DNA of 61,915 nucleotides from Minisyncoccia bacterium (GTDB taxonomy: Bacteria > Patescibacteriota > Minisyncoccia > Phycocordibacterales > UBA918): NCBI GenBank assembly GCA_041742075.1, contig JBGSJJ010000011.1, positions 1 through 61,915 of the forward strand. The letters are read 5' to 3'. The stretch's first letter is position 1, and every line of letters starts with the position of its first letter. Under the pieces are notes generated by a model, which saw only the letters and a list, made by a program, of their open reading frames with translations, was not told the origin of the DNA and did not search any database. The position numbers were made by a program, and so were the translations under genes. Below are positions 1,951 to 61,915 of this stretch, piece by piece.

Positions 1951-2083
1951 CTGCCGGTCAGGGAATCTCTCTTGTTACACAAGCAGTATACCTTTTGGCT
2001 ATATTTTCGCTACGCTCAATCTAGCTCAAAAGCTTTTCGAGCCCCTGACGCGAGTGACATATTAGTCACTCGCTATCTGGCAG
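1951..2083 (-). repeat. tRNA-tail mimic element, type 1 (Gln copy; candidate structured RNA)
   Basis: The minus strand reads, in order: CTGCCAG (anti-acceptor), hairpin GCGAGTGAC-taatat-GTCACTCGC, GTCAGGG (anti-T-stem), CTCGAAAAG, P2 CTTTTG...CAAAAG, GTATACTG, hairpin CTTG-TGTAA-CAAG, then CCCTGACCGGCAG. That last segment copies the tRNA-Gln 3' end with one change. Confidence 0.8.
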
Positions 2084-2126
2084 CTCTAAAGCAAAAATCC
2101 CCTATTCGGGGATTTTATGCTAAGAG

Positions 2127-2197
2127 CTGCCGATCAGGGACTCGAACCCCAATAGCTGGTACCAGAAACCAGAGTCCTACCATTAGACGAATCGGCA
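2127..2197 (-). tRNA. tRNA-Gln (anticodon CTG)
   Basis: Manual cloverleaf: acceptor TGCCGAT/ATCGGCA, anticodon stem CTGGT/ACCAG, loop TTCTGGT, T-loop TTCGAGT. It is followed by the terminator AAAATCCCC-gaat-AGGGGATTTT (plus-strand 2094-2116). Confidence 0.85.
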
Positions 2198-3729: not shown

Positions 3730-3734
3730 AGTAA

Positions 3735-17275: not shown

Positions 17276-17279
17276 TGTT

Positions 17280-17377
17280 GGAGGGGGTTGAAAACCTTTT
17301 GAGATAGATTTGACTGAAAGGAAAATATATCCAAAAGGTGTACTGAAGTAGTAAACTTCGACCCCCTCCCGAGGCAC
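17280..17377 (+). repeat. tRNA-tail mimic element, type 1 (Leu-CAA copy 1)
   Basis: GGAGGGGGTTGAA (antisense of the T-loop/T-stem), P2 CCTTTTG...CAAAAGG, GTGTACTGA, hairpin GAAGT-agtaa-ACTTC, then TTCGACCCCCTCCCGAGGCACAAA. The last segment is 24 nt identical to the tRNA 3' end. Confidence 0.85.
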
Positions 17378-17440
17378 AAATTGACAAGTCGTAATTAATG
17401 GTGAATCGGGAGGCACAGCTTTTTTGCTAAAAAAAGCGTT

Positions 17441-17520
17441 GTGCGGGGTCGAAGCCGTTGCCAGTTGCCTGCAACGTCAACGGGTACTGAAACTGTAAGT
17501 TTCGACCCCCTCCCGAGGCT
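17441..17520 (+). repeat. tRNA-tail mimic element, type 1 (Leu-CAA copy 2, short core)
   Basis: GTGC-GGGGTCGAA, P2 CCGTTG...CAACGG, GTACTGA, hairpin GAAAC-TGTAA-GTTTC, then the tail CGACCCCCTCCCGAGGCT (one mismatch to the tRNA). Confidence 0.8.
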
Positions 17521-17600
17521 CAAAATTTAAAGTCGGACTTCTAATTGCACTTTAGTGAAAATACTTTACACTTTGACCTGAACTGAACAGGAGAATAAGT

Positions 17601-19912: not shown

Positions 19913-20023
19913 TGCGAGGTCCACGAGGATTCGAAAAGCTTTTGAGATAGATTTGACTGAAAGGAAAATATATCCAAAAGGTATACTGGTCATGTAATGA
20001 CCGAAACTCCTCGTGGGCCCGCA
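19913..20023 (+). repeat. tRNA-tail mimic element, type 1 (Trp copy)
   Basis: TGCGAGGTCCACGAGGA is a near-complete antisense of the tRNA-Trp 3' end. It is followed by TTCGAAAAG, a core 44 nt identical to the Leu-CAA copy, TATACTG, hairpin GGTCA-TGTAA-TGACC, then TCCTCGTGGGCCCGCA (identical to the tRNA tail). Confidence 0.85.
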
Positions 20024-20096
20024 GTAGCAAACAAAACAAACCAGAAGCGCGAGCTTCTGGTTTGTTTTGTTTAGAACGAGCACTTCTGCTCGTTCG

Positions 20097-20278
20097 GCTA
20101 CTGCGGGAGCCGGAGCGGTGTGAGCTTGCGAACCGCGAGGCGGGGTCGCGAGCGCGAGTGGCGACGAGCGACTTGTGACCGCAAGGGAGGTCCACGAGGA
20201 TTCGAAAAGGTTAACTAATATTTTGTGACGCAGGAGCAAAAATATTGATAACCTGTACTGATACTGTAAGAATCGAAA
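20097..20278 (+). repeat. Variant tail-mimic element: inverted copy of the preceding tail, a GC-rich junction module and a type 1-like core, but no 3' tail
   Basis: GCTACTGCGGG (20097-20107) is the reverse complement of CCCGCAGTAGC (20018-20028). It is followed by AGCCGGAGCGGTGTGAGCTTGCGAACCGCGAGGCGGGG, then GGTCCACGAGGATTCGAAAAGG, P2 GGTTA...TAACC and TGTACTGA...TGTAA. Confidence 0.65.
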
Positions 20279-20287
20279 TACTAAATT

Positions 20288-21553: not shown

Positions 21554-21580
21554 AAAAAATATTTATTTTAATCTAAATCG

Positions 21581-22093
21581 TCACGGTTGCTTGCAAAACG
21601 TTAGATCAAATCTTCTACCTTGATAATCAGGATTCACTGAGTATGGCACACCTATATATACATTAAGCTTGCAGGCGTCGACATCTGAAATCTGAAGTAG
21701 TTGCGAAAAGTACCGGCTTGCCAACTCATGATTTAAAGCTATTGGCTCATTTTCAATAGCGATTGAAAATGAGTTATCTATCTCTGAATAAAGAAGTGAA
21801 AATGGAGCATCTGGGTCCCCTACCTCTCCTCTAAGGTGATAAAAGCCTTCTCCAGGTTTTGTAACTTCAGGCAGTGTGCGTATATCAAAGATTTCTATCA
21901 CTCCCGCATCGGTAGGTATAAGGGTTGTGTATGGATCTTCACTTTCTGGACGTTCTACAGTACCAAGATCTTCTAGATCTGTATACCCTGAATTTTTATC
22001 TTTCTGAGAAGTATCCATAAAATATTGAAAAATAATTGTTCCTAAAACAAGAACGGTGATAGTACCAAGAGCTAAGATTAGTATTTTTTGCAT
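21581..22093 (-). CDS. membrane-anchored hypothetical protein
   Basis: MQKILILALGTITVLVLGTIIF anchor. The start was set at the internal Met so it does not overlap the upstream gene. Confidence 0.5.
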   Translation of the reverse strand: MQKILILALGTITVLVLGTIIFQYFMDTSQKDKNSGYTDLEDLGTVERPESEDPYTTLIPTDAGVIEIFDIRTLPEVTKPGEGFYHLRGEVGDPDAPFSLLYSEIDNSFSIAIENEPIALNHELASRYFSQLLQISDVDACKLNVYIGVPYSVNPDYQGRRFDLTFCKQP

Positions 22094-22101
22094 ATTTAAT
22101 A

Positions 22102-23229
22102 CTATTGTAACCCACAACCAGCCGCTGTTGACCATGGTCTCCAGCTATTTCCGGCCTCACGATAAATACGAGCTCCGTTTCGAATGTTACAGGCATGATT
22201 TTGTGCAGCTTCAGCACACTGCTGGTACAAGGCTTCGTTTATTACCACAGCGTCATAGTTACGACCAGAAAAAGCGTCGAGACAACGCATTGTAGCTGGG
22301 TAGCCGGGACAGTCTCGGAGTTCATGTACCGTGAGATTGATCTGCATTGGTCCAAAAGAGAAGGCTCTTCCGTCTACTCGCATTACGTCTGTTCTACTCA
22401 CTCCTGAAGCACCGCACGAACTTTCTGCTTCAATAATACACTGAGCATTACCAGTGTTGCTTCCAAAAAATGGTCCAATAACAGAAGTACTGCAAGCCCC
22501 ACCCGCTGATCGATCAGGGGGCCGTCTTCGGTCTGAAGGAAGTACTGAAACATCATTGGTTATAACACACTCAAACTGTCCAAGACCTTCGCCTGCTCTA
22601 ATTTGCCCCCCTTCCGCACGACACCAGTCAATACAGCCACCCGGAACAGCTGTAACTTCATCTGGACAATCTATCACATCAAAACCTCCCGCAATAAGCC
22701 TGTCTCTTGGCGTAACGCGAAGTTCATCGATAATCCAACCGCAATTAAGTCTTTCAAATTCAGGCGGTGGTAAGTCAGGATTGGTACAAGAAACCAAGTC
22801 AATACCCTGTCTATCACTTTCAAACTCCTGAGGTTCATAAGCACTCTGGTCAACACACTCAACACTATTCCACACGCCATACTCTCCCTCCCTGAGCAAA
22901 CCTTTCAAGACAGTATCAACAATAAGCCAAGCCGCGAGTGCAATTACAATCCCGAGCGCAAGGTTTGAAATAGTTTTCTTAATAAACGTTAAACCATTAT
23001 CATTACCCATTGAAGTAACCGAAACCAGTCCAGCGTACACAATTGCCACCCCAGCCAAAATAGCGAGCATACTAATGAGCCACGTCATCACGTTGCTAAT
23101 GAGTGGAATAATGTGACAGGTCTGACACGCTTCCTCACCGGGATTTCCACATGGCACGAGATTAGCTGAGAAAACAGACTCTGGGACAAGAGCACACGCT
23201 ACTAAAAATATGAACGCGATATACCGCAT
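22102..23229 (-). CDS. secreted/membrane fusion protein: pilin-like N-terminal domain and a lytic-transglycosylase (SLT/lysozyme-like) C-terminal domain
   Basis: Signal peptide, CGNPGEEACQTC, two TM helices and YGVWNSVEC. The C-terminal IIEAESSCGASG...SFGPMQINL matches the E-S...G-x-MQ pattern of family-1 lytic transglycosylases. Confidence 0.6.
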   Translation of the reverse strand: MRYIAFIFLVACALVPESVFSANLVPCGNPGEEACQTCHIIPLISNVMTWLISMLAILAGVAIVYAGLVSVTSMGNDNGLTFIKKTISNLALGIVIALAAWLIVDTVLKGLLREGEYGVWNSVECVDQSAYEPQEFESDRQGIDLVSCTNPDLPPPEFERLNCGWIIDELRVTPRDRLIAGGFDVIDCPDEVTAVPGGCIDWCRAEGGQIRAGEGLGQFECVITNDVSVLPSDRRRPPDRSAGGACSTSVIGPFFGSNTGNAQCIIEAESSCGASGVSRTDVMRVDGRAFSFGPMQINLTVHELRDCPGYPATMRCLDAFSGRNYDAVVINEALYQQCAEAAQNHACNIRNGARIYREAGNSWRPWSTAAGCGLQ

Positions 23230-23547: not shown

Positions 23548-23631
23548 GCGTCGATGGCGGAGTGGTCAATCGCAACAGACTGTAAATCTGTCGGACATCG
23601 TCCTACGAAGGTTCGAATCCTTCTCGGCGCA
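23548..23631 (+). tRNA. tRNA-Tyr (anticodon GTA), class II
   Basis: Acceptor GCGTCGA/TCGGCGC, stem ACAGA/TCTGT, loop CTGTAAA, long variable arm, T-arm GAAGG-TTCGAAT-CCTTC. The terminator ATACCC...GGGGTATTTT follows. Confidence 0.9.
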
Positions 23632-23728
23632 CTTTTTAAAATACCCTTATTTATAGGGGTATTTTGTTGAGACAGAACAACTGGTTAGAACCTTTGCTAT
23701 ATTTAATCTTTTGGACTAAGATTTGGAC

Positions 23729-24382
23729 ATGAAAAGTGATTACCAAGAAAAACTCACCTCCCTATCCTCTCACGTTTCTAAAACTCTATTAAAATGGCAG
23801 GGTTTTAAAAAAAGAAGAAACGCATTCAATCGAAAATTGGACGGCGGAATAGTCCAAATAATAAGTTTCCAAGCTGGCAGTTACGAGCCATTTGCTATAG
23901 ACGTCCCAAACATGAACTACTTCCCTAACAGTTTATATGGAAAGTTTACAATCAACTTAGGAATATACATTGATGATTTACAAATTTTCATGCATGGTAA
24001 GAAACCAAAAGATTTTGTAAACGAATACGATTGCCAATTGAGAACGAGAGCTTCACACTTAGTTACCTCAACAGATGAATGGATTTCAATTGATAAAGAT
24101 TTCGATAAATTATCGAAAGAAACTACTAATCTAATTGAAAAATATGCACTACCTTTTCTAGATAGGTTTAATTCAAGAGAAAAAATAGAAGAATATTTTA
24201 AAACTGAAGGGACTACATTAACTAATATCCCTTTGGCATATTTAGCAATAATGTGCCATAAAGATGGTAACAATGAAGCAAGTTCTTCCTACATGAAAAA
24301 ACACATCGACTCAATCGTAAATCATGAAGGTCACAAAGAATATATGTTTGCGTTGGCTAAAAAACTTGGTCTGGATATTTAA
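23729..24382 (+). CDS. hypothetical protein (217 aa), AT-rich; the N-terminus resembles DUF4304-type proteins
   Basis: LLKWQGFKKRRNAFNRKLDGGIVQIISFQ follows the GFKK-x-GN-x-F-x-R...I-x-FQ pattern I recall for DUF4304 (from memory, unverified). The ORF is bracketed by GGTTAGAAC (23683-23691) and GTTCTAACC (24424-24432). Confidence 0.5.
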   Translation: MKSDYQEKLTSLSSHVSKTLLKWQGFKKRRNAFNRKLDGGIVQIISFQAGSYEPFAIDVPNMNYFPNSLYGKFTINLGIYIDDLQIFMHGKKPKDFVNEYDCQLRTRASHLVTSTDEWISIDKDFDKLSKETTNLIEKYALPFLDRFNSREKIEEYFKTEGTTLTNIPLAYLAIMCHKDGNNEASSSYMKKHIDSIVNHEGHKEYMFALAKKLGLDI

Positions 24383-24440
24383 CAAAATTTGGTAGAAAAC
24401 AGTAATCTGACTTAATAATCGCAGTTCTAACCTCTAGCAG

Positions 24441-24490
24441 TCCTGTGCACTTTTTAAAAACGAGCATCCACATTTGTGGGTGCCGTTTTT
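24441..24490 (+). repeat. Degenerate copy of the tRNA-Tyr tail plus downstream TTTTTAAAA and a terminator hairpin
   Basis: TCCTGTGCACTTTTTAAAAA compares with TCCTTCTCGGCGCACTTTTTAAAA at the tRNA, followed by GCATCCACA-ttt-GTGGGTGC and TTTTT. Confidence 0.6.
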
Positions 24491-24494
24491 ATTA

Positions 24495-24630
24495 GTGTGC
24501 CGAGAGTGAGTGACTCAATGTCACTCACGTAAAGATTCGAAAACCTTGCCTACTATTTTATGACGTTAGGAAATAAAATAGTGACAAGGTGTACTGAAGC
24601 TGTAAGCTTCGAAACTCCTTCTCGGCGCAC
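24495..24630 (+). repeat. tRNA-tail mimic element, type 1 (Tyr copy)
   Basis: GTGTGCCGAGA (anti-acceptor), hairpin GTGAGTGAC-tcaat-GTCACTCAC, GATTCGAAAA, P2 ACCTTG...CAAGGT, GTGTACTGA, hairpin GAAGC-TGTAA-GCTTC, then CGAAACTCCTTCTCGGCGCAC. Confidence 0.85.
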
Positions 24631-24635
24631 ATAAC

Positions 24636-24664
24636 TTGACAATACACTAGAAATGGTGTATTGT
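24636..24664 (+). promoter_or_regulatory. sigma70-like promoter (TTGACA, 17-nt spacer, TATTGT) 6 nt after the duplicated tail
   Basis: TTGACA 24636-24641, TATTGT 24659-24664. It points at ORF 24847-25236. Confidence 0.55.
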
Positions 24665-24846
24665 TTTGCATAAATCTAATCAGTATGGAGTCTGCTATGA
24701 GGTATCCCAGATAGCGGCTTCGGCTGCTTATTTTGTTCTTTTTCTTTCAAAAATCAAACCGCAACCCGCTCCCTATCAAATTCGTGATGGACCGCGTTCG
24801 GCCATAACCGCCGACCACCCATAACGAAGAAAGCTAGGAGCACAAC

Positions 24847-25236
24847 ATGAAGAAGCGTAACGAACATGGTCTGACTCAAAGTCAGGTTCGCAGGTTAGCG
24901 AATATTCTTTTGGAACTCCAGGGTGCACTCGAATCAGTGCGCAATGGGAACGGAACAACCGCCGACGTAGAGCAGTGGAAGAAACCCCTGTTCGAAAGAA
25001 CATCAGCGATTCTGGGTGAAAACCTAACGCGATACCATCAGACCATTGCCGCCCTCAGGCGACATGGAATCGTGGACGAGTTTCAGGAAGAAGCTGACCG
25101 AGAGGAAGCCGTGAAGCGTGATTTCAGGATGAGGCGTGCCGAACGATTCGGTCTCCCCTACGACTCCAAAGATAGCGCTTTCCTGGATAGGTACGAAGCG
25201 GAAGCAAATTGGCTCGACCAGTACGGTTCAAGCTAA
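24847..25236 (+). CDS. hypothetical protein (129 aa), visibly GC-richer
   Basis: Intact ORF with AGGAG 6 nt upstream. A hairpin and T-run follow at about 25271-25300. Confidence 0.5.
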   Translation: MKKRNEHGLTQSQVRRLANILLELQGALESVRNGNGTTADVEQWKKPLFERTSAILGENLTRYHQTIAALRRHGIVDEFQEEADREEAVKRDFRMRRAERFGLPYDSKDSAFLDRYEAEANWLDQYGSS

Positions 25237-25329
25237 TCGTAACCTCAATTATCAACAAGTCGTCACTCAAACGGAAAAGACCGTTTGGAGGGACGGCTTT
25301 TTCTATTGCCTCCTCACCACACAAAAGTG

Positions 25330-25354
25330 TCGAACCAGCTCCATCCCGGCGCAC
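25330..25354 (+). repeat. Further copy of the tRNA-Tyr tail (TCGAACCAGCTCCATCCCGGCGCAC) followed by TTTTAAAAAA and a terminator
   Basis: Same tail + TTTTAAAA + hairpin organisation as at 23612-23675 and 24441-24490. Confidence 0.6.
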
Positions 25355-25514
25355 TTTTAAAAAATGACCTTGTTTTGCAAGGACATTTTTCTTAGGAAAA
25401 GATAGAGTTCAAAAAATACTATATCCGTGCCATTTTTCTATAAATATTAAAGACTTGATCTTCTTGGATCCTTGTGTATAATTTGGATATCACGACGAAG
25501 AGGGTTCCGAACGG

Positions 25515-26040
25515 TTAATTGCCTAAGGAGCCCTTTTCTTTTGCTATCTTTTTTCTTACATCTAAATAGGACAGATCTGCAAAAAATTCAGCGCCCAATA
25601 CTTTATACAAAGACGACGCATAGCGTTGATTCGGAAACAATATTTTCTCCAGCTTATTCTCTTCCAGAAGAAAATCGACAAGCATTTTATAATCACCATC
25701 TCCAGACACAAGAACGATTTTAGCAAACGTGTCATCCTTATATACTTTTTTCATTATCGAAAAGATAATGTCAGAATCAACATTACCTTTCTTTTTACCA
25801 ATCATAGCTGAATTATGTTGGCGAAATACTAGAATAAATCCAGCCGACTGGATCTCTTCGTATAATTCTTGAGACCTTTCACTAATCTTGGACGTAACCG
25901 AGGAAATAGTATGCCTGATCAACATCGTACTTCTCCCTAAGGAAAACCCTAAATCTTGCCAAATCAACCTTCCACGAAGGTTCTCTCTTAGTGGTTCCCA
26001 TAAATAGATTCTGTCCGTCAACGTAAGTGAGATTTTTCAT
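25515..26040 (-). pseudogene. NYN/LabA-like (PIN-like) domain gene split by a 1-nt frameshift near 25885
   Basis: The N-terminal part lies in ORF 25882-26136 (MKNLTYVDGQNLF...YYFLGYVQD*). The C-terminal part lies in ORF 25515-26021 (...SQELYEEIQSAGFILVF...VLVSGDGDYKMLVDFL). Confidence 0.6.
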
Positions 26041-26059
26041 TGTAAAATTATACCAAACA

Positions 26060-26264
26060 AAGGTTCGAACCTTCTCCAATCTATACAGATTCCTTACAGG
26101 AACTGTCCACTCATTGGACCTTATGTTTCGCTTCACTTACAAAAGTTCCTCAATGAGTCTTGCGACAAGCTCCCAGCTTGTCTCACTATTCAGGTTGTAT
26201 GATATTTTTGCAAAATATCGACAACTTCTTGCGACAGTTTCCCAAACTGTCTCACCCGGCGCAC
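26060..26264 (+). repeat. tRNA-Tyr T-arm copy, two tandem type 2 modules and an acceptor-tail copy
   Basis: AAGGTTCGAACCTTCTCC; then CCTTACAGGAACTGT, P2 ACTCATTG...CAATGAGT, CTTGCGA, hairpin CAAGCT-ccc-AGCTTG and TCTCA; then hairpin TTGTATGATATTTT/AAAATATCGACAA, CTTGCGA, hairpin CAGTTT-ccc-AAACTG, TCTCA and CCCGGCGCAC. Confidence 0.75.
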
Positions 26265-37134: not shown

Positions 37135-37154
37135 CAGCAACGAAGTTGATGAAT

Positions 37155-37254
37155 GGCGGGAATTGAAGACCTTGCGAGACAAGTTTGACTGAAAGGAAAA
37201 CATGTCCACAAGGTGTACTGAAACTGTAAGTTTCAATTCCCGCCCCGGCCTCAG
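37155..37254 (+). repeat. tRNA-tail mimic element, type 1 (Cys copy; minimal, no intervening terminator)
   Basis: GGCGGGAATTGAA (exact antisense of TTCAATTCCCGCC), P2 ACCTTG...CAAGGT, GTGTACTGA, hairpin GAAAC-TGTAA-GTTTC, then TTCAATTCCCGCCCCGGCCTCAG. The last segment is 23 nt identical to 37115-37137. Confidence 0.85.
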
Positions 37255-37398: not shown

Positions 37399-37529
37399 CA
37401 TCGGTATACTAAAATTAACCCTGGACATAAGTCCAGGGTTAATTTAAATGACGACAAATAAGCCTGGGTTTCAACTAATGAAAATAATATTGAACTGTGA
37501 TACACTCTTTCGGCACACACATTTTAATT

Positions 37530-37611
37530 GCGCGGGTGGTGAAATTGGTATACACGTTAGTCTTAGGAACTAATGGGGCAACCCGTGGAGGTTCAAGTCC
37601 TCTCCCGCGCA
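37530..37611 (+). tRNA. tRNA-Leu (anticodon TAG), class II
   Basis: Acceptor GCGCGGG/CCCGCGC, stem TTAGT/ACTAA, loop CTTAGGA, T-arm GGAGG-TTCAAGT-CCTCT. Confidence 0.9.
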
Positions 37612-37650
37612 CAAAGTAAAAGCTAGGCCTTGTGTCTAGCTTTTTGCTTT

Positions 37651-37852
37651 GTGCGTGAGCTTGCGTGGGGTGGACTTGAAAACCTTGTGTGACAGATTCG
37701 ACCAGAGGAGAATATGTCCACAAGGTGTACTGAACCTGTAAGGTTCAAGTCCTCTTCTTACAGAAGCTGTATACCTTATCAGTATTCCTCGCTTCGCTCA
37801 GAATACTAGATAAGGTCTTGCAAAGTGCTCCCAGCACTTTTCACCCGCGCAC
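37651..37852 (+). repeat. tRNA-tail mimic element, type 1 (Leu-TAG copy 1), with its tail split by a nested type 2 module
   Basis: GTGCG-TGAGCTTGCG-TGGGGTGGACTTGAA, P2 ACCTTGTG...CACAAGGT, GTACTGA, hairpin GAACC-TGTAA-GGTTC, CAAGTCCTCT, then an 88-nt insert, then CCCGCGCAC. Confidence 0.85.
37756..37843 (+). repeat. type 2 module nested between the T-stem copy and the acceptor copy of the duplicated Leu-TAG tail
   Basis: TCTTACAGAAGCTGTAT, P2 ACCTTATCAGTATT...AATACTAGATAAGGT, CTTGCAA, hairpin AGTGCT-ccc-AGCACT, TTTCA. Same 88-nt length and same first 22 nt as 45644-45731. Confidence 0.8.
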
Positions 37853-37880
37853 AAAATAAAACGCCTTCGGGCGTTTTATT

Positions 37881-38025
37881 GTGCGCGGAGCAAACGATAG
37901 TTTGCGGAGAGGACTTGAAAAGATGGAGTATATCGCACGGAGTGAAATAGTCTGGGAGACTATTTCATCGAGTACGATACGACATCTGTACCGCTCCTGT
38001 AAGGAGAAAGATTCCTCTCCCACAC
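37881..38025 (+). repeat. tRNA-tail mimic element, type 1 (Leu-TAG copy 2, divergent core, degenerate tail)
   Basis: GTGCGCGG, hairpin GCAAAC-gata-GTTTGC, GGAGAGGACTTGAAAA (exact antisense of the tRNA 3' end), P2 GATG...CATC, TGTACCG, hairpin CTCC-TGTAA-GGAG, then ATTCCTCTCCCACAC. Confidence 0.7.
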
Positions 38026-38060
38026 AAAATTAAAAGCCAGGCTTTGTGTCTTTTAATTTT

Positions 38061-38078
38061 GTGCGTGAGCTTGCGTGG
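38061..38078 (+). repeat. Truncated 5' piece of another Leu-TAG element (GTGCGTGAGCTTGCGTGG)
   Basis: Identical to 37651-37668. It is cut off by the 3' end of trhO. Confidence 0.6.
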
Positions 38079-38085
38079 TGATGAT

Positions 38086-39117
38086 TTATGAGCTCTTCAA
38101 GCGATGTTTCTTAAACTGAGCTGGGCGGAAATACTGATTATAGGTACGGGCATACCATTTCTTAAACCGTGCTGGCAAAAAGTCTGAAAGTAGACACCAA
38201 TACGAACAATACCCCTGCTTCTGTCTAATACACGAATCACACCCGAGGAACAAGACATGACAGACTTTGTTTTTGCAGTGGTAATGCGTGTCACTTTTTG
38301 CCGTATGGCAGAGGTGGCAGTTTGAAATAATTTCCTCACCAATTCGTTCTCCAAGCCGTTCGTCAAACACAAAGTTCTTCCCTAGAAATTTATTTGGAAG
38401 CCCCTCACGCTCCACCTGATGCTTGTAGTCGATAATTCCTCCTCGCAAATGGCGAACATCAGTATAGCCATTATGCTTAAGCCATGCGCTCGCCTTTTCA
38501 CAGCGAATACCACCAGTGCAATACAGCGCTATTTTTTTATTTTTATGAACGCGAAGTAGTTCAGGTGCCACCATGAGTTCTTCCCGAAACGTATCAACTT
38601 GAGGCAGGATAGCGCCATCAAAATGTCCAATTTCACTTTCATAGGCGTTGCGCATATCAACCACAATCGCATCCGGATCGGCTATGTACTCATTCATCTC
38701 ACGAGCCGTAAGATATGCTCCAGTGTTAGTCACGTCAAACGAAGCATCGTCAAGCCCGTCAGCCACAATCTTATCCTTCACCTTTACCGTGAGCTTATAG
38801 AACGAACTACTATCCCCTTCTTCAACCGCGATTTTATACGGAATACCCTGAAACTCTGGGATGTTTTTTATGAACGCATCAAACTGATCAAACAGATAGG
38901 CCGGCACATTCATTTGGGCATTGATACCTTCACAAGCAACATAGATACGCCCCAAACAACCAAGCGCATGCAGGCGTTCAAATAGTCTGTCCCGCATCGC
39001 TTCTGGGTCAGCAATCTCAACATATTTATAAAACGACAAGGTACGCCGTGGAATACCGTCACTCTGTACTGACTGACGTTTTTCGTCTCGCGGGCGCATG
39101 TCCTTTACTATAGCCAT
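38086..39117 (-). CDS. trhO: rhodanese-domain tRNA uridine(34) hydroxylase (UPF0176/YceA family)
   Basis: SFYKYVEIADPEAMRD...GRIYVACEGINAQ, rhodanese active-site loop YCTGGIRCEKA, C-terminal Cys cluster. Confidence 0.85.
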   Translation of the reverse strand: MAIVKDMRPRDEKRQSVQSDGIPRRTLSFYKYVEIADPEAMRDRLFERLHALGCLGRIYVACEGINAQMNVPAYLFDQFDAFIKNIPEFQGIPYKIAVEEGDSSSFYKLTVKVKDKIVADGLDDASFDVTNTGAYLTAREMNEYIADPDAIVVDMRNAYESEIGHFDGAILPQVDTFREELMVAPELLRVHKNKKIALYCTGGIRCEKASAWLKHNGYTDVRHLRGGIIDYKHQVEREGLPNKFLGKNFVFDERLGERIGEEIISNCHLCHTAKSDTHYHCKNKVCHVLFLGCDSCIRQKQGYCSYWCLLSDFLPARFKKWYARTYNQYFRPAQFKKHRLKSS

Positions 39118-41156: not shown

Positions 41157-41504
41157 CTATACGGTTACGGTAAGACCAAACGTGCCAGCGGCAATACGCA
41201 GAATGGCGATAGCGGAAAGCATAATCACCATACCAATCACACCATAAAGCATATGGCGTTGCCCTTGTGAGCGGTCACTATAGCTACTGGCACCTTTAAT
41301 GTATTCAAACACGCCAAACATAAACACCGCAAAAGCGATTCCGAGCATTAGGGTAATCAGTGGGAAAACCAAGTTTGCTTCAAGACGCCCAACAAACTCT
41401 TGGGAAGCAGCGCGCGCTCTATCTTCGGCACTTTCAGCCAGCAAAAGAGAAGGGTACAAGAAGATTGTGAGCAAAAGTAATCGTAGGTGTTTCATAAATA
41501 TCAT
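41157..41504 (-). CDS. pilin-like small membrane protein (signal peptide and two TM helices; VirB2/TrbC-like architecture), divergent member
   Basis: Same architecture as the five paralogs downstream of it: signal peptide, TM, charged loop (KGASSYSDRSQGQRH), TM. Confidence 0.55.
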   Translation of the reverse strand: MIFMKHLRLLLLTIFLYPSLLLAESAEDRARAASQEFVGRLEANLVFPLITLMLGIAFAVFMFGVFEYIKGASSYSDRSQGQRHMLYGVIGMVIMLSAIAILRIAAGTFGLTVTV

Positions 41505-41561
41505 TAGCTAGTCCTTTAATTGTACTACACAGGAGATTTATAGTGACTCTTGTACACAAGT

Positions 41562-41921
41562 TTAGAAACCGGTAGTAGGGCCTTCTCCAAGGGAAGATAC
41601 AAATGAATCCAATATAAAATTAACAACACCCCAGATGGCTACTATGAGGACCAAACCAAGTACCCCCCACACCATAAGCGCCTTACCACTCTCCCGTGCC
41701 TCTTGATTGTCTGCGCCCGCAATAAAGTACCGAAAAATACCATAACAAAACACAAACACAGCCAGAGCAAATACGAGTGGTAGCAGGGTACTAGAAATAA
41801 AATCAGTAGCGCTCAAAAAAACCCGATTCAAACCTCCGAGATTATTAGCAGTTTGAGCAAAAGCGAGACTTGGAACAAGCAACGTAACTGTACCAAAAAG
41901 ACTACGTGGGATATGCTTCAT
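41562..41921 (-). CDS. pilin-like small membrane protein (paralog)
   Basis: AFAQTANNLGGLN...LLPLVFALAVFVFCYGIFRYFIAGADNQEARESGKALMVWGVLGLVLIVAIWGVVNFI. Confidence 0.65.
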   Translation of the reverse strand: MKHIPRSLFGTVTLLVPSLAFAQTANNLGGLNRVFLSATDFISSTLLPLVFALAVFVFCYGIFRYFIAGADNQEARESGKALMVWGVLGLVLIVAIWGVVNFILDSFVSSLGEGPTTGF

Positions 41922-42057
41922 ATATTATACCTACATTAAAGCATAGTCTAAGCAGACTGTAACAAACAATCTGAACACAACTTAAAACTCTTCTGCGAAA
42001 GCAGAAGAGTTTTAAGTAACAATTTTAGCCGGAAGGCGAAAGAGTTATAGTTTATAA

Positions 42058-42447
42058 CTATGCACCTGGAACAGTTGGAAGGTTTACACCTTGCCCATCG
42101 AGAGCAGTACCGCCTGTTGCGCCACTTAAGATATCGATCACGAGGTTTACAATACCCCATACCGCTACAATGAGTACTAGACCGAGGATACCCCAGATCA
42201 TGAGACTCTTGCCACTCTCTCGAGCTGCTTCGTCTCCACCACCAAGGATGAAGTACTTGAAGATACCGTATACGAATACGAGTAGAGCGAGTGCAAAAAC
42301 AAGTGGTAGAAGTGTGCTTGAAACAAAGTCTGTAATCGCAAGGAAAAAGTTGTTAAGACCACCAAGATCATCTGCTGTTTGGGCAAACGCAAATACTGGG
42401 AATAAGAAGACTGCTACAGGTGCTAAATAAGAAAATGATTTTTTCAT
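42058..42447 (-). CDS. pilin-like small membrane protein (paralog)
   Basis: AFAQTADDLGGLN...LLPLVFALALLVFVYGIFKYFILGGGDEAARESGKSLMIWGILGLVLIVAVWGIVNLVI. Confidence 0.65.
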   Translation of the reverse strand: MKKSFSYLAPVAVFLFPVFAFAQTADDLGGLNNFFLAITDFVSSTLLPLVFALALLVFVYGIFKYFILGGGDEAARESGKSLMIWGILGLVLIVAVWGIVNLVIDILSGATGGTALDGQGVNLPTVPGA

Positions 42448-42575
42448 AAACTAAATAAATATTAATAATTCCGACTTACTGGTAATGATAGCACCAAATT
42501 TTACGTAAACAAAGGCTCATTACACTGACTGTGTATAAGCTGTAATGGAGATTACAGGGAAAAGTGGGCTTGAAA

Positions 42576-42965
42576 CTAGACTGGCATCGCAGGCACATTT
42601 ACCGTGTTGTCAAACGGAGTAGCGCCGGTAGAGCTGTCAAGAACACTGATCACGAGGTTTACAATCCCCCATACTGCCACTATAAGTACCAAACCAAGGA
42701 TACCCCAGATCATGAGACTCTTGCCACTCTCTCGATCATCTTCGTTGGCGCCACCAAGGATAAAGTACTTGAAAATGCCGTAGACAAAGGCTACGAGAGC
42801 AATCGCAAACAGAAATGGCAATATGGTACTACCAAGAAAAGCGGTGATATTAAGGAAAAACGTGTTGAGTCCACCAAAAGCGGCAGCATCGCCTTGAGCA
42901 GCAAACACCATAAGGGGTGAAAGAATTGAAGCAATAACAGCTAAATGTAAAAATGTTTTTTTCAT
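42576..42965 (-). CDS. pilin-like small membrane protein (paralog)
   Basis: Start set at MKKTFLHLAVIAS. Contains ...ILPFLFAIALVAFVYGIFKYFILGGANEDDRESGKSLMIWGILGLVLIVAVWGIVNLVI. Confidence 0.65.
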   Translation of the reverse strand: MKKTFLHLAVIASILSPLMVFAAQGDAAAFGGLNTFFLNITAFLGSTILPFLFAIALVAFVYGIFKYFILGGANEDDRESGKSLMIWGILGLVLIVAVWGIVNLVISVLDSSTGATPFDNTVNVPAMPV

Positions 42966-42991
42966 ATAAGTATAATTATGGTAATCGTTGC

Positions 42992-43246
42992 CTAGTAAAA
43001 GAGACTCGACCGCAAGAGTTGCACCAGTCCCCAAAAGCCAAACATAACCACAAGACCAATAATAGTCGCTAAGAGCACCTGCTTCCCTTCTGAGACTTTT
43101 TTCTCGTCTCCACCATGGATAATCCAGATATTGATGATTTGCCATACTGCAAAAGCAAACGTAACGGCAAAGATAAGATACACGAGTGAATTCATTATCT
43201 CTAAGAAACGAGCGACGAGTCCAGCAAAGGTAGTTGGGGTTGGCAT
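42992..43246 (-). CDS. pilin-like two-TM protein without an obvious signal peptide
   Basis: LVYLIFAVTFAFAVWQIINIWIIHGGDEKKVSEGKQVLLATIIGLVVMFGFWGLVQLL. Confidence 0.55.
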   Translation of the reverse strand: MPTPTTFAGLVARFLEIMNSLVYLIFAVTFAFAVWQIINIWIIHGGDEKKVSEGKQVLLATIIGLVVMFGFWGLVQLLRSSLFY

Positions 43247-43254
43247 ATACGTAC

Positions 43255-43611
43255 TTAGCCTGTCATGGCGGTTATAAGGTTACTCACGATAGTAATTATA
43301 CCGTAGGCACCAAGTATGAGTAATCCCCCGATGATGGCGTAGAGCAAGGCTCTGTTAGCCTGGGTGATAGTCTGTTCATTACCGCGAGCCGTTACGTACA
43401 AAAAGCCAGCGTAAATAATGAAAAAAACAATAATCGGTGTTGCAAAGACGATGACGATCGCAATAAGCGCCATGAAGAAGTCTTGAATGTTGGTGGCGAT
43501 AAGCGGACTCTCTATCTGCACGGCGTAGACATGAGACGCTAGCGTAAGAGCTGTTAAAAGAATGCTAAGTTTTGTATACAGCCTCACAAAATTGTTTTTA
43601 AGCAGTAGCAT
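43255..43611 (-). CDS. pilin-like small membrane protein (divergent paralog)
   Basis: Signal peptide, then IVFATPIIVFFIIYAGFLYVTARGNEQTITQANRALLYAIIGGLLILGAYGIITIV. Confidence 0.55.
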   Translation of the reverse strand: MLLLKNNFVRLYTKLSILLTALTLASHVYAVQIESPLIATNIQDFFMALIAIVIVFATPIIVFFIIYAGFLYVTARGNEQTITQANRALLYAIIGGLLILGAYGIITIVSNLITAMTG

Positions 43612-44927: not shown

Positions 44928-45479
44928 TTACTTGCGGAATGCCATACCATAGTGGTGGTCACCAGAGTCAAAAGTACGTTCAAACACAAAGCCGGTGGAT
45001 TCAACATAGGCTCGAGCGTCACGTTCAGTCACTATCTGTTCAAACTGTGGGCCAAGTCCCCCAAACGAATCAGTCCAGTCGATAAGGAAAAACTTCCCAC
45101 CAACTCGGAGCGTTCGGTAGACTTCTCGTAGTGCTGTACCTTTGTCGTCAAACTGAAACAGTGTGTTCACCATCACTCCCGCGTCTAGTGACCCGTCAGG
45201 AATCGGGAGTCCGCCCTCTGCTTCAATATCGCACCACTTGGGATCAATATTTAAAAGACCTTTCCGTCTGGCTGAATCGCCAATTTTTTCAACTAATTCT
45301 TTTTGAATTTCACACGCCACCACTCGCCCACTAGGACCAACAACGCGAGCAAGTATTTCGGAAAAAAAACCAGCGCCAGCACCGAAGTCTGCCACCACAT
45401 CACCCTCACGCAAGTGAAAATGCGACGCCACTACCGCTGGTTCTACAAAACGTCCTTGCATTTGAAGTGCGTTGCTCAT
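44928..45479 (-). CDS. class I SAM-dependent methyltransferase
   Basis: VVADFGAGAGFFSEIL motif I. The start was set at MSNALQMQ; the ORF track extends to 45572. Confidence 0.8.
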   Translation of the reverse strand: MSNALQMQGRFVEPAVVASHFHLREGDVVADFGAGAGFFSEILARVVGPSGRVVACEIQKELVEKIGDSARRKGLLNIDPKWCDIEAEGGLPIPDGSLDAGVMVNTLFQFDDKGTALREVYRTLRVGGKFFLIDWTDSFGGLGPQFEQIVTERDARAYVESTGFVFERTFDSGDHHYGMAFRK

Positions 45480-45643
45480 TTCTTTAAGTATACCTTGTCT
45501 GTTCGTAAAAAAACTGCACCGGGTGTGTAAAGAGCTTTGCTTATATAGTTTGCCCGACACGGATAGTGCCAAGCTCCCGCAGGACGCAAACGCGGTTCCT
45601 CCCTAGGCATATTTTCCTAAGCAAGACGCCAAGCGCCATTTCT

Positions 45644-45731
45644 TCTTACAGAAGCTGTATACCTTGTCAGTATTTTTCATTCTTCAAAATACTAGGCAAG
45701 GTCTTGCGAAGTGACATTGAATCACTTCTCA
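45644..45731 (+). repeat. type 2 module, orphan copy with no tRNA nearby
   Basis: TCTTACAGAAGCTGTAT, P2 ACCTTGTCAGTATT...AATACTAGGCAAGGT, CTTGCGA, hairpin AGTGA-cattgaa-TCACT, TCTCA, then CCCTGGTGGG. Confidence 0.75.
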
Positions 45732-45955
45732 CCCTGGTGGGTTGTGTAAATCACAGAGCGAAGCGACGCGCTGTGCGTATGAAAATCATAGTCACTTTGT
45801 TCCTTGATTTACACAATGATTTTCATACATAGAAAATTCTATTCCTAATGGATTTTCTATGCAGCTATTTATTATTTCCCTTTGTCCAGCGATTTTCTCT
45901 GGGGAGAAAAAATCGGGACATAAGTTCGCAATAGTCGCTACGCTCCTTTGCTTAC

Positions 45956-48427
45956 TTAAAAGAAGACAATCGAGGCAATTGAGTCCCCTGGTCGCATCTT
46001 CATCACCTTAACCCCTTGCGTGTCTCTACCAAGCGATGGTACGTCAGTAAGCGAAAGTTTAATTACCTGCCCCTTCTTACTCATGACGACGAGTTCTCCT
46101 TCTGCTTTATCTTCTTTGGTAACCACGGCTACTCCCACCACCTTACCAGTTTTGCTCGTCACCTTGGCGGTTTTAATACCAGAACCACCACGATTTTGGG
46201 TCTTATATTCTGAGGCTGGCGTTGTCTTACCAAAACCATTTTCCATCACCACGAGAATTTCACGACCAGAGTCACCTGGTGTAAGAATATCGGCTGACAC
46301 AATATGGTCACCCTTCTTAATCTTCATACCCGTTACCCCAGCAGCCGTACGGCCCATTTCACGAACATCATCTGAGCTAAATCTGATTGCCTGACCGTTG
46401 TAGGTAACGAGTGAAATTTCGTCTTTTTTACCGACAAAGCGAGCAGCTATCAAAGCATCGTTATCTTTAAGGGTAATTGCGATTAAGCCACTCCGACGGA
46501 CATCTTTAAATGCTCCAGCATCAGATTTTTTAACGACACCATTTTTGGTTACCATTAACAGGCTCCACTGCCCTACCCAGTCTTCTTTGCGAACGGCCAA
46601 AACCGAAGTGACTCGTTCTTCTCCAGTGAGAGAGAGGAAATTCATAATTGACTTTCCTTTGGTCGCTCGCCTCCCTTCAGGAATTTCATACATTTTGCAC
46701 TGATACACCTTACCTTTGTCAGTAAAGAAGAGAAGATCACTATGGGCTGAGGTGGTAAGAAGGGTTGTTACCACGTCCTCCTCCTTGGTATTTAAGTCAA
46801 CCACGCCAACTCCACCACGTTTCTGGGTTTTGTACTCAGCTGGGTTCGTCCGCTTGACGTATCCTCCGGCCGTTAAAACGAGCACGCTCTCTTCGTCAGC
46901 AATCAAGTCTTCAGCTGACATGTTTTTCACTCCGCCTTTGACAATCTTAGTCCGCCGATCGTCACCAAAACGCTCTGCTGCCTCAGCGAGTTCTTTTTTC
47001 ACAATTGACATCATTTTCTTCGCACTGCTCAGAATTGCTTCAAGCTCCTTGATGAGCGCTTGTACTTCTTTGAGTTCGTCCTCAATCTTCTTGCGTTCAA
47101 GGCCAGCGAGTTTCTGGAGACGCATATCAAGAATTGCCTGCGCTTGGATGGCGGAGAATTTAAATTCTTTCATTAAGGCAGCGTGAGCGGTTGGCACATC
47201 TTTAGCCGCCCTGATGAGCTTGATTATCTTATCGATATGATCAAGGGCTTTCTTGAGACCAAGCAAAATATGTTCACGGTCTTTTGCTTTCGTGAGGTCG
47301 TACTGTGTTCGACGCTTCACTACCTCAGCTCGATGCTTAATGTACTCTTCTAAAATCGCCTTAAGCGAAAGAGTTTGTGGTACACCATTTACCAGGGCCA
47401 CCATGTTGTAGTGGAAGGTATCTTCGAGCTGGGTATGCTTGTAGAGTTTATTTAAAACGGTTTGTGGGTTAGCACCACTTTTTAGTTCGATTACTACGCG
47501 AATGTCCGAAGTCGATTCGTCACGCATTTCACGAATACCTTCAATCTTTTTTTCACGAACCAAGTTGGCAATTTTCTCTTGCATGTCAGCCTTGTTCACG
47601 CGGAACGGAATAGAGGTAATCACGATAGCGTAGTTACCTTTCTTGTCTTCAATAATCTCCGCTTCACCGCGCACCACAACCCCTCCCCGGCCGTTGGCGT
47701 AGGCGTGGGCAATTGCTTTACGGTCAAACGCCACACCGCCCATCGGGAAGTCTGGCCCTTTTACAAAATTAAGGAGATCATCAGTTGTCGCTTTTGGATT
47801 GTCAATCAAATGCGCAATCGCGTCCGCGAGCTCACGCAAATTGTGCGGAGGGATATTGGTCGCCATCCCGACCGCAATTCCGAGCGTACCCATGAGAAGT
47901 AAGTTAGGGAGTCCCGCTGGCAGTACTTCTGGTTCTTTCTTTGTACCATCGAAGTTAGGTCGCCAATTGACCGTATCTTTCTCGAGGTCACGGAGCATTT
48001 CTTCGGCAATCTTCGACATCTTGGCTTCGGTGTATCGATACGCCGCCGCTGAGTCACCATCGATAGAACCAAAGTTACCTTGTCCAAGAATAAGCGGGTA
48101 GCGGGTCGAAAACTGCTGAGCAAGCTTTACCATTGACTCATACACCGCCGCGTCGCCGTGGGGGTGAAAACTTCCGAGCACATCTCCCACTACCGTTGCT
48201 GACTTTTTAAACTTTGCACTTGAGGTAAGTCCATTGAGACGCATTGAGTAGAGAATTCTTCGGTGCACCGGCTTTAAGCCATCGCGAACGTCAGGCAAGG
48301 CGCGCGAAGTAATCACGCTCATAGCGTAATCAAGATAGGCCGTCTCCATTTCAGAGGTAATACTCTGAGGCACGATGCGATTCCCTTCGTGTGGTGCAGC
48401 TTCCGGAATGATAGTCTTTTTCGGCAT
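45956..48427 (-). CDS. gyrA: DNA gyrase subunit A
   Basis: [12 protein letters not shown], active-site region [13 protein letters not shown]-terminal beta-pinwheel repeats. Confidence 0.96.
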
Positions 48428-61128: not shown

Positions 61129-61898
61129 TTGGTTTCTCAAGAACACACCAGTACTATCACCATAGACAGCCAGCCAAGGACTGGGCGACCAAGCAGCTCA
61201 TAGAGATGGCTCTGCGTGATCACCCCAGCTATGGCCACAAACGTCTGGCACTCCACCTCAAACTAAACAAGAAACGTATCCTGCGAGTGATGCAGCTATT
61301 CGGTATTAAACCATACCGCCGGATCACTCCTAAACTCTATAAAAAGCCTAAGGACAGCGTCTTTCCTAACCTTCTAATGACGGAAACACCCCTTGGTCCC
61401 GGTGATATCTATGCGAGTGATTTCACCTATCTGAAGTACTACGGACGCTGGGTGTATGTGGCCACAATACTTGATGTGTTCACGCGGGAGATTGTGGGTG
61501 TCTCGGTATTAACGACTCACCACACCCAGCTGGTATTAAACGCGCTTGGTGCAGCCGTACTCAATCGTCCACCGCCTCGGATCATCCACTCTGATCAAGG
61601 GAGTGAGTATACTTCAGCAGACTATACTAACTTGGTGCAGTCTCTCAAGATTAAGCAGTCTATGAGTGCGCCGGGGTGCCCTTGGGAGAATGGGTACCAG
61701 GAGTCCTTTTATAAAGGCTTCAAACTTGATCTAGGTGACCCTAATCGGTTTGAGACACTTGGTGAACTAGTGGCAGCGGTGTATCAAACGATTAATTACT
61801 ATAATCAAAAGCGGATACACTCAGCCCTGAAACTACCACCGCGGTTGTTTAAAGAGCAGTTTGAGGTATCATTAATGGACTTAGAAAAGGTGTCTTAA
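61101..61898 (+). CDS. IS3-family transposase OrfB (DDE/rve core), expressed by a -1 frameshift at A AAA AAA G (61101-61108)
   Basis: DFTYLKY...HSDQGSEYTS...ENGYQESFYKGFK (D, D, E spacing). The -1 frame from 61101 reads KKRALQGLVIGFSRTH. Confidence 0.85.
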   Translation, partial: KKRALQGLVIGFSRTHQYYHHRQPAKDWATKQLIEMALRDHPSYGHKRLALHLKLNKKRILRVMQLFGIKPYRRITPKLYKKPKDSVFPNLLMTETPLGPGDIYASDFTYLKYYGRWVYVATILDVFTREIVGVSVLTTHHTQLVLNALGAAVLNRPPPRIIHSDQGSEYTSADYTNLVQSLKIKQSMSAPGCPWENGYQESFYKGFKLDLGDPNRFETLGELVAAVYQTINYYNQKRIHSALKLPPRLFKEQFEVSLMDLEKVS

Positions 61899-61915
61899 TT
61901 TTGGGGTACCTTCCA

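Follow-up and report, generated by a model that had tools for sequence, protein, structure and literature searches.

The gyrA-methyltransferase locus and its repeat

The stretch analysed here (the window) is a 61,915-nucleotide (nt) contig of a Minisyncoccia bacterium (JBGSJJ010000011.1), in which an earlier reading of the letters alone, the original prediction, had drawn attention to an 88-base structured repeat. One copy, the 45.6-kb copy, lies between gyrA (45956-48427, minus strand) and an S-adenosylmethionine (SAM)-methyltransferase gene (44928-45572, minus strand) and is antisense to both; as predicted, no tRNA gene is near, the nearest being ~8 kb off. The repeat is a member of a family of ~100-base (about 95-105 bp), three-hairpin modules, here called type 2, that extends across Patescibacteria (candidate phyla radiation, CPR) genomes. 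A covariance model (CM) of the family, R1, built from 78 copies and run over the window with filters off, placed the full module at 45641..45734 on the plus strand (88.5 bits, E 8e-20). Its first helix, P1, pairs 45642-45646 with 45650-45654 (CTTCT-TAC-AGAAG) and is followed by CTGT (45655-45658); the long P2 pairs 45661-45676 with 45686-45702 and leads into CTTGCGA (45703-45709), and P3 (45708-45714/45722-45728) runs into TCTCAC (45727-45732). The predicted core of the module was correct, but the element is slightly longer, P1 being made by pairing of the RAR triplet with the 3 nt that lie 5' of CTTACAG.

Ten loci with gyrA-to-methyltransferase synteny, gathered by a metagenome scan with the methyltransferase, encode GyrA proteins whose amino acid identity in the aligned portions is 61-89% (~84% where almost the entire protein is present). 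By R1, the module was found in none of the 10, and it is absent from L117, where gyrA has 76% DNA identity; two of the ten (L133, L127) carry a P3-like remnant only (..TGCTTCCAAGCATTCGCTTTCTCAC), in opposite orientation. Since the module is absent from syntenic relatives, the 45.6-kb copy is a lineage-specific insertion, although no base-level empty site was obtained, the relatives' intergenic regions being too diverged for alignment. The remainder of the spacer in the window (45735-45900) consists of dense, overlapping inverted repeats (TTGTGTAAATCA/TGATTTACACAA, TATGAAAATCAT/ATGATTTTCATA, CATAGAAAAT/ATTTTCTATG), with a weak CM match at 45766-45861 (15.8 bits); the syntenic relatives have a single terminator hairpin instead, ending ..TTTTTCAC. 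Directly 3' of the gyrA stop codon stands AATAGTCGCTACGCTC, which is common to L054; L009 and L117 have only related sequences (GCTATTGTCGCTACGCTC; GAAGTTCGCTCG).

All four units of the original prediction are present where and as it described them. Besides the 45.6-kb copy, full modules lie on the plus strand at 37753..37846 (the 37.7-kb copy, 77.1 bits) and 26089..26188 (the 26-kb copy, 83.9 bits, of the CCACTCATTGG P2 subfamily), the E-values of the three ranging from 8e-20 to 5e-17. The fourth unit (26203..26257, plus strand; CM 26.4 bits, E 1e-4, and nhmmer) is leaderless, comprising a P2-like hairpin, CTTGCGA, P3 and TCTCAC, and stands in tandem with the 26-kb copy; tandem leaderless units occur likewise in L022, L025, L068, L070 and L083. 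The two 88-nt copies have 22 nt in common (TCTTACAGAAGCTGTATACCTT). On the plus strand of the window the exact leader, CTTACAGRARCTGT, occurs three times; allowing up to 2 mismatches gave four matches, compared with 1.5 expected. In a MAFFT alignment of the four units, the blocks CTTACAG..CTGT, TCTTGCRA and TCTCAC are invariant. The compensatory changes read as claimed, both in P2 of the 88-nt copies (ACCTTAT/ATAAGGT versus ACCTTGT/GCAAGGT) and in P3, which is re-paired between them (AGTGCT..AGCACT versus AGTGA..TCACT) and reads CAAGCT/AGCTTG and CAGTTT/AAACTG in the 26-kb units. The 37.7-kb copy interrupts a downstream duplicate of the 3' end of tRNA-Leu(TAG), in the order GGTTCAAGTCCT, module, CCCGCGCACA, the intact gene being at 37530-37612. 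The 26-kb copy is preceded by a duplicate of the tRNA-Tyr T-arm (26061-26077), and the leaderless unit beside it is followed by CCCGGCGCAC, a duplicate of the tRNA-Tyr 3' end.

Distribution, covariation and relation to type 1

One-genome-per-species contigs were searched with the exact pattern CTTACAGRARCTGT-N45-75-CTTGCRA, which gave at least 119 matches. The full architecture is present in ~92 of the 119 matches listed, nearly all from metagenome-assembled genomes (MAGs) of Patescibacteria/CPR, with Saccharibacteria, Kaiser-, Nomura-, Zambryski- and Vogelbacteria and Paceibacteria among the hosts. The other 27 lack the 3' tail, make up most of the non-Patescibacteria matches and are mostly chance matches inside coding sequence. 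Further copies thus exist elsewhere in number: more than 90 matches of full architecture and, by R1, 125 in 680 kb of Patescibacteria loci. An 85-bit module at L052 2107-2207 is on a contig of a MAG labelled Patiriisocius (Flavobacteriaceae); a Patescibacteria contig binned wrongly is a likelier explanation than genuine presence of the module in another group. Scans of 2.9 M viral contigs with two patterns returned no true match, all 7 matches being due to chance and mostly inside coding sequence, and a phage or plasmid origin was rejected on these scans. No prior description was found in the full-text literature searched.

Alignment A2 comprises 78 copies, with a structure derived from RNAalifold and curation that contains the three helices P1, long P2 and P3. 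P1 has the form NNNCU-UAC-AGN'N'N', with an exact complement of the RAR triplet 5' of CTTACAG in 79 of the 84 tail-bearing matches listed, a complementarity for which the search pattern did not select. P2 falls into discrete subfamilies (CCACTCATTGG/CTCAATGAGT, ACACCTTGTC/GGCAAGGT, TCAGGTTGT/GACAACCT), and P3, between CTTGCGA and TCTCAC, has at least three loop classes. In A2, 92.9% of the paired cells can pair, compared with 76.4% after shuffling (none of 500 shuffles as high); double-sided changes number 376 versus 129 in the shuffles, and controls with slid partners reach only 40-50% pairing. Alignment A3, made of the R1 matches, gave 94.8% versus 73.0%, with double-sided changes in all 27 pairs. 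The predicted family of structured repeats with compensatory changes is thus borne out, pairing being far above the shuffles in both alignments and further copies being many. That the similarity is chance, low complexity or an assembly artefact deserves practically no credence: the 27 tail-less genome matches and all 7 viral matches are indeed not family members, but CM E-values reach 1e-17 to 1e-23, the P1 complement recurs unselected, the shuffled and slid-partner controls fall far below the observed pairing, and the same architecture is seen at msrA and rnhB in independent assemblies.

The apex of P2 often reads GCGAAGC on the CTGTAAG strand (TCGCTTCGCTC on the opposite strand), a hyperstable DNA mini-hairpin, which fits hairpin or cruciform DNA. 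The motif TCGCT(T/A)CGCTC (on the opposite strand GAGCGAAGCGA, which includes GCGAAGC) makes up the P2 apex as well as the loop of unrelated small intergenic hairpins; it occurs in the window at 2007-2017, 37789-37799, 26128-26138, 45756-45766 (minus strand) and 45935-45945, and elsewhere in L082 (2460-2520), L054, L020 and L017. In L074 (4780-5040), an open reading frame (ORF) leads at its 3' end straight into three units that adjoin without a gap and have an enlarged P3 (CGACGGG..CCCGTCG), the predicted protein terminating within the first of the three modules.

Type 2 had been described as a second family, separate from the type-1 modules in the trailers of tRNA genes. This separation does not hold, as type-1 modules match the P1 and P2 core of type 2 on the opposite strand: the type-2 hidden Markov model (HMM, nhmmer) and CM hit every type-1 tRNA-trailer module of the window (24-45 bits, E 3e-9 to 4e-4). 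Judged from these matches, type 1 and type 2 are one superfamily, read on opposite strands, with 13 members in the window. Their common core on the CTGTAAG strand is TTG(A/C)AA(A/G)ACCTT-[P2]-AAGGT(G/A)TAC(T/A)G-NNN-CTGTAAG-N'N'N'; in the place of P3 and TCTCAC of type 2, type 1 has an inverted copy of the T-loop/T-stem of its host tRNA. On the minus strand, type-1 modules were located at tRNA-Leu(TAG) (37653..37746; CM 38.9 bits, E 1e-7, and nhmmer), at tRNA-Cys (37143..37234; 41.0 bits, E 3e-8), inside the tRNA-Tyr islet described below (24518..24610; 45.1 bits, E 3e-9; nhmmer E 1e-4), as a first and a second unit 3' of tRNA-Trp (19917..20002, 33.2 bits; 20188..20274, 37.5 bits) and as a first and a second unit 3' of tRNA-Leu(CAA) (17285..17359, 30.4 bits; 17446..17503, 24.1 bits, E 4e-4). 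A third module 3' of tRNA-Leu(TAG) is type-1-like with a long P2 (37940..38007, minus strand, 26.9 bits), and the type-1 module of tRNA-Gln (gene at 2126-2197, minus strand) appears type-2-like on the plus strand at 1970..2051 (37.1 bits). At 37.7 kb, type 1 and type 2 stand head-to-head with their P1 hairpins 6 nt apart, an arrangement seen also in L078, L015, L092 and L047.

One or two type-1 modules each follow six of the nine tRNA genes of the window (Gln, Leu-CAA, Trp, Tyr, Cys and Leu-TAG), the type-1 regions being 17277-17540, 19917-20280, 24518-24616, 37143-37245, 37653-37752, 37900-38030 and 1970-2110. In the copies at Leu-CAA, Cys, Leu-TAG and Gln, the T-loop, T-stem and acceptor 3' strand of the module's own tRNA recur twice, reverse-complemented in the 5' arm and as a direct copy in the 3' arm. 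At tRNA-Leu(TAG) and tRNA-Leu(CAA) the terminator hairpin continues as a long inverted repeat, in which the tRNA 3' end is contained; in these two copies, which were read closely, the G.U wobbles are on the plus strand. For type 2, a role of P3 as guide or copy of the flank, in the manner of the type-1 arms, is out, the longest substring common to P3 and its own flank being no longer than with permuted flanks.

The association of the modules with tRNA genes is real: a tRNA gene lies within 175 nt of ~20 of the 92 full copies, compared with ~3% expected by our own estimate from 72 tRNAs in ~0.9 Mb. Type 2 is nevertheless not strictly tRNA-bound, as had been proposed, and copies occur beside protein genes, beside 5S rRNA and in plain intergenic DNA.

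Duplicated gene ends and the nature of the element

In at least 24 of 82 copies, the flank that follows TCTCAC is repeated 7-390 nt upstream of P1, and the repeat begins almost always at flank position 0. These repeats are host-gene ends, and the duplicated piece varies in length from 14 to ~140 bp: 45/45 for 5S rRNA and for tRNA-Phe, 41/41 and 34/34 for msrA, with further cases at rnhB and at tRNA-Leu, -Cys, -Tyr, -Ile and -Val. The 3' part of a tRNA is repeated in the window for Leu-TAG and, at the 26-kb copy, for Tyr (by eye; only Leu-TAG passed the repeat search), and elsewhere for Leu-CAA (L032), Cys (L075) and Tyr (L092); the flank in L015 is tRNA-Tyr-like, below the repeat threshold. 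Repeats of the tRNA 5' part plus leader were found for Ile (L006), Val (L036) and Phe (L081) and beside a tRNA-Asn gene (L111); L033 has the same kind of repeat with no tRNA called, and L029 a TCTACC flank motif only. The end of 5S rRNA is repeated in L078. The 5' coding end of msrA is cut after ..GGCFW, before the following G (L039, L072), and that of rnhB after ..DEVG (L046, L105), and at both genes independent assemblies agree on the architecture. In L009 and L054, a ~95-140-nt hairpin locus (..CCAGCAGTTTCTGCTGA...TCAGCAGCAGAAACTGG) is duplicated on both sides of the module (L009 ~1070-1210 and 780-970; L054 ~3680-3820 and 3380-3575); it has no Rfam match at the gathering threshold and may be an unannotated small RNA gene of that lineage.

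The intact gene is always on the P1 side of the module. In L046, two tandem units, each an rnhB 5' fragment plus a module, precede the intact gene, and neither fragment is identical to the other or to the gene. In those cases that allow a comparison of both flanks with an intact gene, the module is a clean insertion in place of ~2 nt: CT at the 37.7-kb copy, TG in L006, GA in L081, CA in L078, CC in L032 and TT in L075. The insertion positions in tRNAs are junctions between cloverleaf helices (~25/26, 48/49, 60 and 65/66). The left flank is pyrimidine-rich and the right flank C-rich, CC following TCTCAC in 38% of copies versus 5% in the background; the 'CCC tail' that the original prediction had counted as part of the module is instead flank, and in duplicated targets it is host-gene sequence. 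A tRNA intron was rejected as an explanation, because the interrupted pieces are partial pseudo-copies beside an intact gene and because the orientation of the module relative to the tRNA sense differs between 5'-side and 3'-side cases.

The prediction had implied a structured RNA. Such a functional non-coding RNA, either self-transcribed or serving as a processing or stability element in neighbouring transcripts, would use the hairpins as RNA helices and CUUACAG, CUGU, UCUUGCGA and UCUCAC as single-stranded functional sites. The very strong covariation, the conserved unpaired motifs and the enrichment of tRNA genes nearby are what one would expect of it, and the subfamilies, up to 93-96% identical across genomes with diverged paralogues in the same genome, behave like tRNA-like gene families. 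However, G.U and A.C are balanced in the curated helices (49:51 in A2, 55:66 in A3; 48:37 in a strand-agnostic count). Individual positions favour one or the other: one (34/158) is U.G in 24 copies and never A.C, whereas others are almost exclusively A.C and would be mismatches in plus-strand RNA. The reverse complement is slightly better folded in 66 of 78 copies. The check for strand bias relative to flanking genes that the prediction had called for, run on the copies, gave a ratio of about 50:50, with 40 copies opposite to the neighbour on the P1 side versus 37 in the same direction, and 41 versus 36 on the P3 side; both neighbours run in the direction of the module in 22 copies and against it in 26. 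Moreover, host-gene ends are duplicated at the junctions, and the module is absent from syntenic relatives.

At the gathering threshold, Rfam identified only the nine tRNAs in the whole window, and at E up to 10 the regions 37400-38100 and 45550-45960 had sub-threshold chance matches only, so that a known RNA family was rejected. No conserved promoter or terminator is evident; the only sigma-70-like match, within P2 of the 45.6-kb copy, has hexamers for which the family alignment shows no conservation. A cis-regulatory leader or terminator was rejected on the lack of orientation bias and of a U-tract after any hairpin (by eye, in the family alignment). No conserved ORF or reading frame was found through the module: each reverse-strand frame contains stops in 68 of 75 copies and no forward frame is consistently open, on which a protein-coding role or an in-frame peptide like that of the Rickettsia palindromic elements (RPE) was rejected. 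Hammerhead, hepatitis delta virus (HDV), twister and pistol ribozymes, retrons, diversity-generating retroelements (DGR), bridge RNA, TnpB omega-RNA and group II intron fragments were considered and could not be supported. Given the balance of G.U and A.C, the fold of the reverse complement, the unbiased orientation and the lack of an ORF, a strand-specific RNA is not favoured, and we regard a functional structured RNA as unlikely.

The balanced G.U and A.C counts, the random orientation and the duplicated host-gene ends point to a DNA-level mobile repeat. We therefore lean, with modest confidence, towards the module being a non-coding, non-autonomous insertion element that is mobilised in trans rather than an RNA gene. 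It behaves as a polar insertion: the TCTCAC end precisely adjoins a C-rich position inside a conserved sequence such as a tRNA helix junction, 5S rRNA or the catalytic-motif codons of msrA and rnhB, the CTTACAG (P1) end faces the intact gene copy, and 14-140 bp of the target are present twice. The gene stays intact because part of it is duplicated beside the module. An enzyme that is encoded elsewhere and acts in trans may recognise the hairpins as folded single-stranded or cruciform DNA, much as the REP-associated tyrosine transposase (RAYT) acts on repetitive extragenic palindromes (REPs), TnpA of IS200/IS605 on its end hairpins or the integron integrase on attC. The duplication could arise by long staggered cleavage or by integration of a unit that brings a target-end copy with it, and in small genomes presumably only those insertions survive that leave a working gene.

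Several observations weigh against such a mobile element. None of the ~50 ORFs of the window, which are housekeeping genes and type IV secretion system (T4SS)-pilin paralogues, encodes a transposase, recombinase, reverse transcriptase or HUH-endonuclease. Nor does a mobility family recur near the copies: when ORFs within 2.5 kb of 114 copies were clustered, no family occurred in more than 5 loci and the top clusters were housekeeping by eye (DnaK-like, Fmt-like, ribosome hibernation factor-like, sigma-factor-like and L32-like), on which a neighbouring mobility gene was rejected. Flanking repeats are absent or undetectable in ~70% of the copies, including the 45.6-kb copy, and no target duplication of fixed length was found. 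Terminal inverted repeats (TIRs) are lacking, the 5' end (NNNCTTACAG..) being unlike the reverse-complemented 3' end (GTGAGAAG..) by eye; if anything, the ends resemble a direct repeat, TCT(TA)CA (by eye). Divergence within a genome equals that between genomes (0.51 vs 0.52), and some pairs of copies from different genomes are 93-96% identical, near-identical pairs being known from the same tRNA-Tyr site (L015/L092) and from different sites (L026/L081). This pattern looks like an old family under purifying selection, or like site-specific lineages transferred horizontally, and not like a recently active MITE (a miniature transposable element with inverted repeats). For both msrA and rnhB, the same subfamily is found at the same target in different MAGs, which fits either homing-like lineages that move horizontally or very old, selected insertions. 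Finally, the invariance of the blocks is partly imposed by the exact pattern used for collection, and the data are mostly MAG assemblies, in which repeats may be misassembled (L081 has a run of N beside the repeat).

Arrays at tRNA genes bear on another explanation, in which the module is the cis recombination site of a cassette or islet system comparable to integron attC or to the folded single-stranded attP of CTX phage. A unit of module, with or without cargo, plus target-end copy would integrate into tRNA and other conserved genes, and solo modules would be empty cassettes or scars. In the tRNA-Tyr islet of the window (23548-26264), tRNA-Tyr (23548-23632) and a split copy of its T-arm and 3' end (3' copy at 26255-26264) bracket 2.6 kb, the order being tRNA-Tyr, a DUF4304 ORF (23723-24382), a type-1 module, an unknown 129-amino-acid ORF (ORF129, 24847-25236), an ORF for an NYN-domain putative RNase (25515-26021, minus strand), the type-2 module, the leaderless unit and the tRNA-Tyr 3' copy. 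L092 likewise has tRNA-Tyr followed by three modules, and in L046, L074 and L082 one gene end recurs, in diverged copies, in the tandem units. At Leu(TAG), Leu(CAA), Cys and Tyr in the window, and in L032, L075, L092, L006 and L081, the insert lies between direct repeats of a tRNA end. With their inverted and direct copies of the host-tRNA T-loop/T-stem, the type-1 arms would let folded single-stranded DNA mimic the duplex target, and structure is kept amid sequence turnover, as in attC. Yet no integrase is encoded in the islet, in the rest of the window or beside the copies, and inserts at tRNAs usually measure 0.1-0.4 kb, nested copies looking like plain module-only insertions. Within one genome the targets are many and different, as they are for no single classical integrase, and the viral-contig scans with two patterns found only chance coding matches. 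The attC-type cores (RYYYAAC, GTTRRRY) are not apparent by eye in the family alignment, whose ends are CTTACAG and TCTCAC, and no formal core-motif search was made. Altogether a cassette site seems quite improbable. More speculative still, and in our judgement very doubtful, is the idea that type 1 and type 2 together act in cis for an integration system, spread across Patescibacteria and not recognised before, whose module, folded as single-stranded DNA (or RNA), specifies or mimics its own target. Such a 'safe-landing' homing element, possibly guided by nucleic acid, would have neither intron nor intein and would insert at catalytic-motif or helix-junction sites of essential genes while an intact gene copy is regenerated.

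Patescibacteria have streamlined genomes of ~1 Mb with few recognised mobile elements, and a deeply conserved multi-copy element is notable there. It is found in the trailers of tRNAs, in 5S rRNA and at the 5' ends of housekeeping genes and repeatedly duplicates gene ends, and as such is an influence on the shape of these genomes that has not been described so far; fragmented MAGs and calls of pseudo-tRNAs are probably among its effects. The CM R1 can be used for annotating these elements, and the module may provide a handle on a recombination or transposition enzyme. Should the hairpins be recognised in folded DNA and conserved sequence determine the choice of target, it could become a site-specific insertion tool for newly tractable organisms.

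Two other repeats of the window were noted. A 35-nt sequence at 105-139 recurs at 61881-61915 with 89% identity (TTAGAAAAGGTGT...TTTGGGGTACCTTCCA), and five small T4SS-pilin (PF18895/TrbC) paralogues form a cluster, in which 230-nt DNA repeats occupy 41610-42877; there are two larger pilin-domain genes elsewhere in the window, the coordinates noted for the pilin genes being 41157-43611 and 20288-23229.

Comparison with known systems

With MITEs the module has in common dispersed non-coding copies (13 in 62 kb; 125 in 680 kb) and presence or absence between relatives, but not TIRs or short target duplications of fixed length, its nested copies replacing ~2 nt instead. Long, variable target duplications are known from the IS1634 group of the IS4 family, which are autonomous elements of 1.5-2 kb with TIRs and a DDE transposase. 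Like the module, they have flanking direct repeats of tens to more than 100 bp and small host genomes; unlike in that group, no element of the TIR or DDE-transposase type was found with the module.

The resemblance to tRNA-integrating islands, integron attC and CTX-phage attP lies in the direct repeats of tRNA 3' (or 5') ends that bracket the insert, with boundaries at the anticodon loop or T-loop, in the arrays at one tRNA and in a structured site with sequence turnover. However, the insert is usually just the 100-nt module, the integrase expected within a tRNA-integrating island is missing, and many targets are used per genome, including protein genes and 5S rRNA.

BOX of Streptococcus pneumoniae, RUP, Correia/NEMIS and enterobacterial repetitive intergenic consensus (ERIC) elements are likewise modular, with a leader and variable internal units, and intergenic in either orientation; the module shares the BOX-like trait of leaderless P2+P3 or P3-only units in tandem. 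These elements have TIRs and/or short fixed target duplications, of which the module shows neither, and are species- or genus-specific. RPE are palindromic repeats of ~100-150 bp that, in a reduced genome, enter protein and RNA genes without being lethal. An RPE is tolerated in-frame within the protein, whereas the host gene of the module is kept by duplication of its 5' or 3' end, with no frame conserved.

REPs and their paired form (REPIN), mobilised by RAYT, share further traits with the module: short non-coding palindromic repeats, many diverged copies per genome, frequent inverted pairing (for the module, the head-to-head type 1 and type 2 of 37.7 kb), structure kept by compensatory change and persistence without bursts. 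REPIN-RAYT systems persist over comparably long times. They are mobilised in trans by a single distant gene, as the module may be; no RAYT-like (Y1 transposase) gene was seen in the 62-kb window or in the 8-kb loci, and no GTAG/CGTC tag in the family alignment. REPs are single hairpins of 20-40 nt with such a tag, lineage-restricted and extragenic without target duplication; the module has three hairpins over ~100 nt, is spread superphylum-wide, and lies in conserved genes, flanked by duplicated gene ends. We rate structured interspersed repeats of the REPIN/BOX/RPE kind as its closest relatives in type, but with an unusual target biology.

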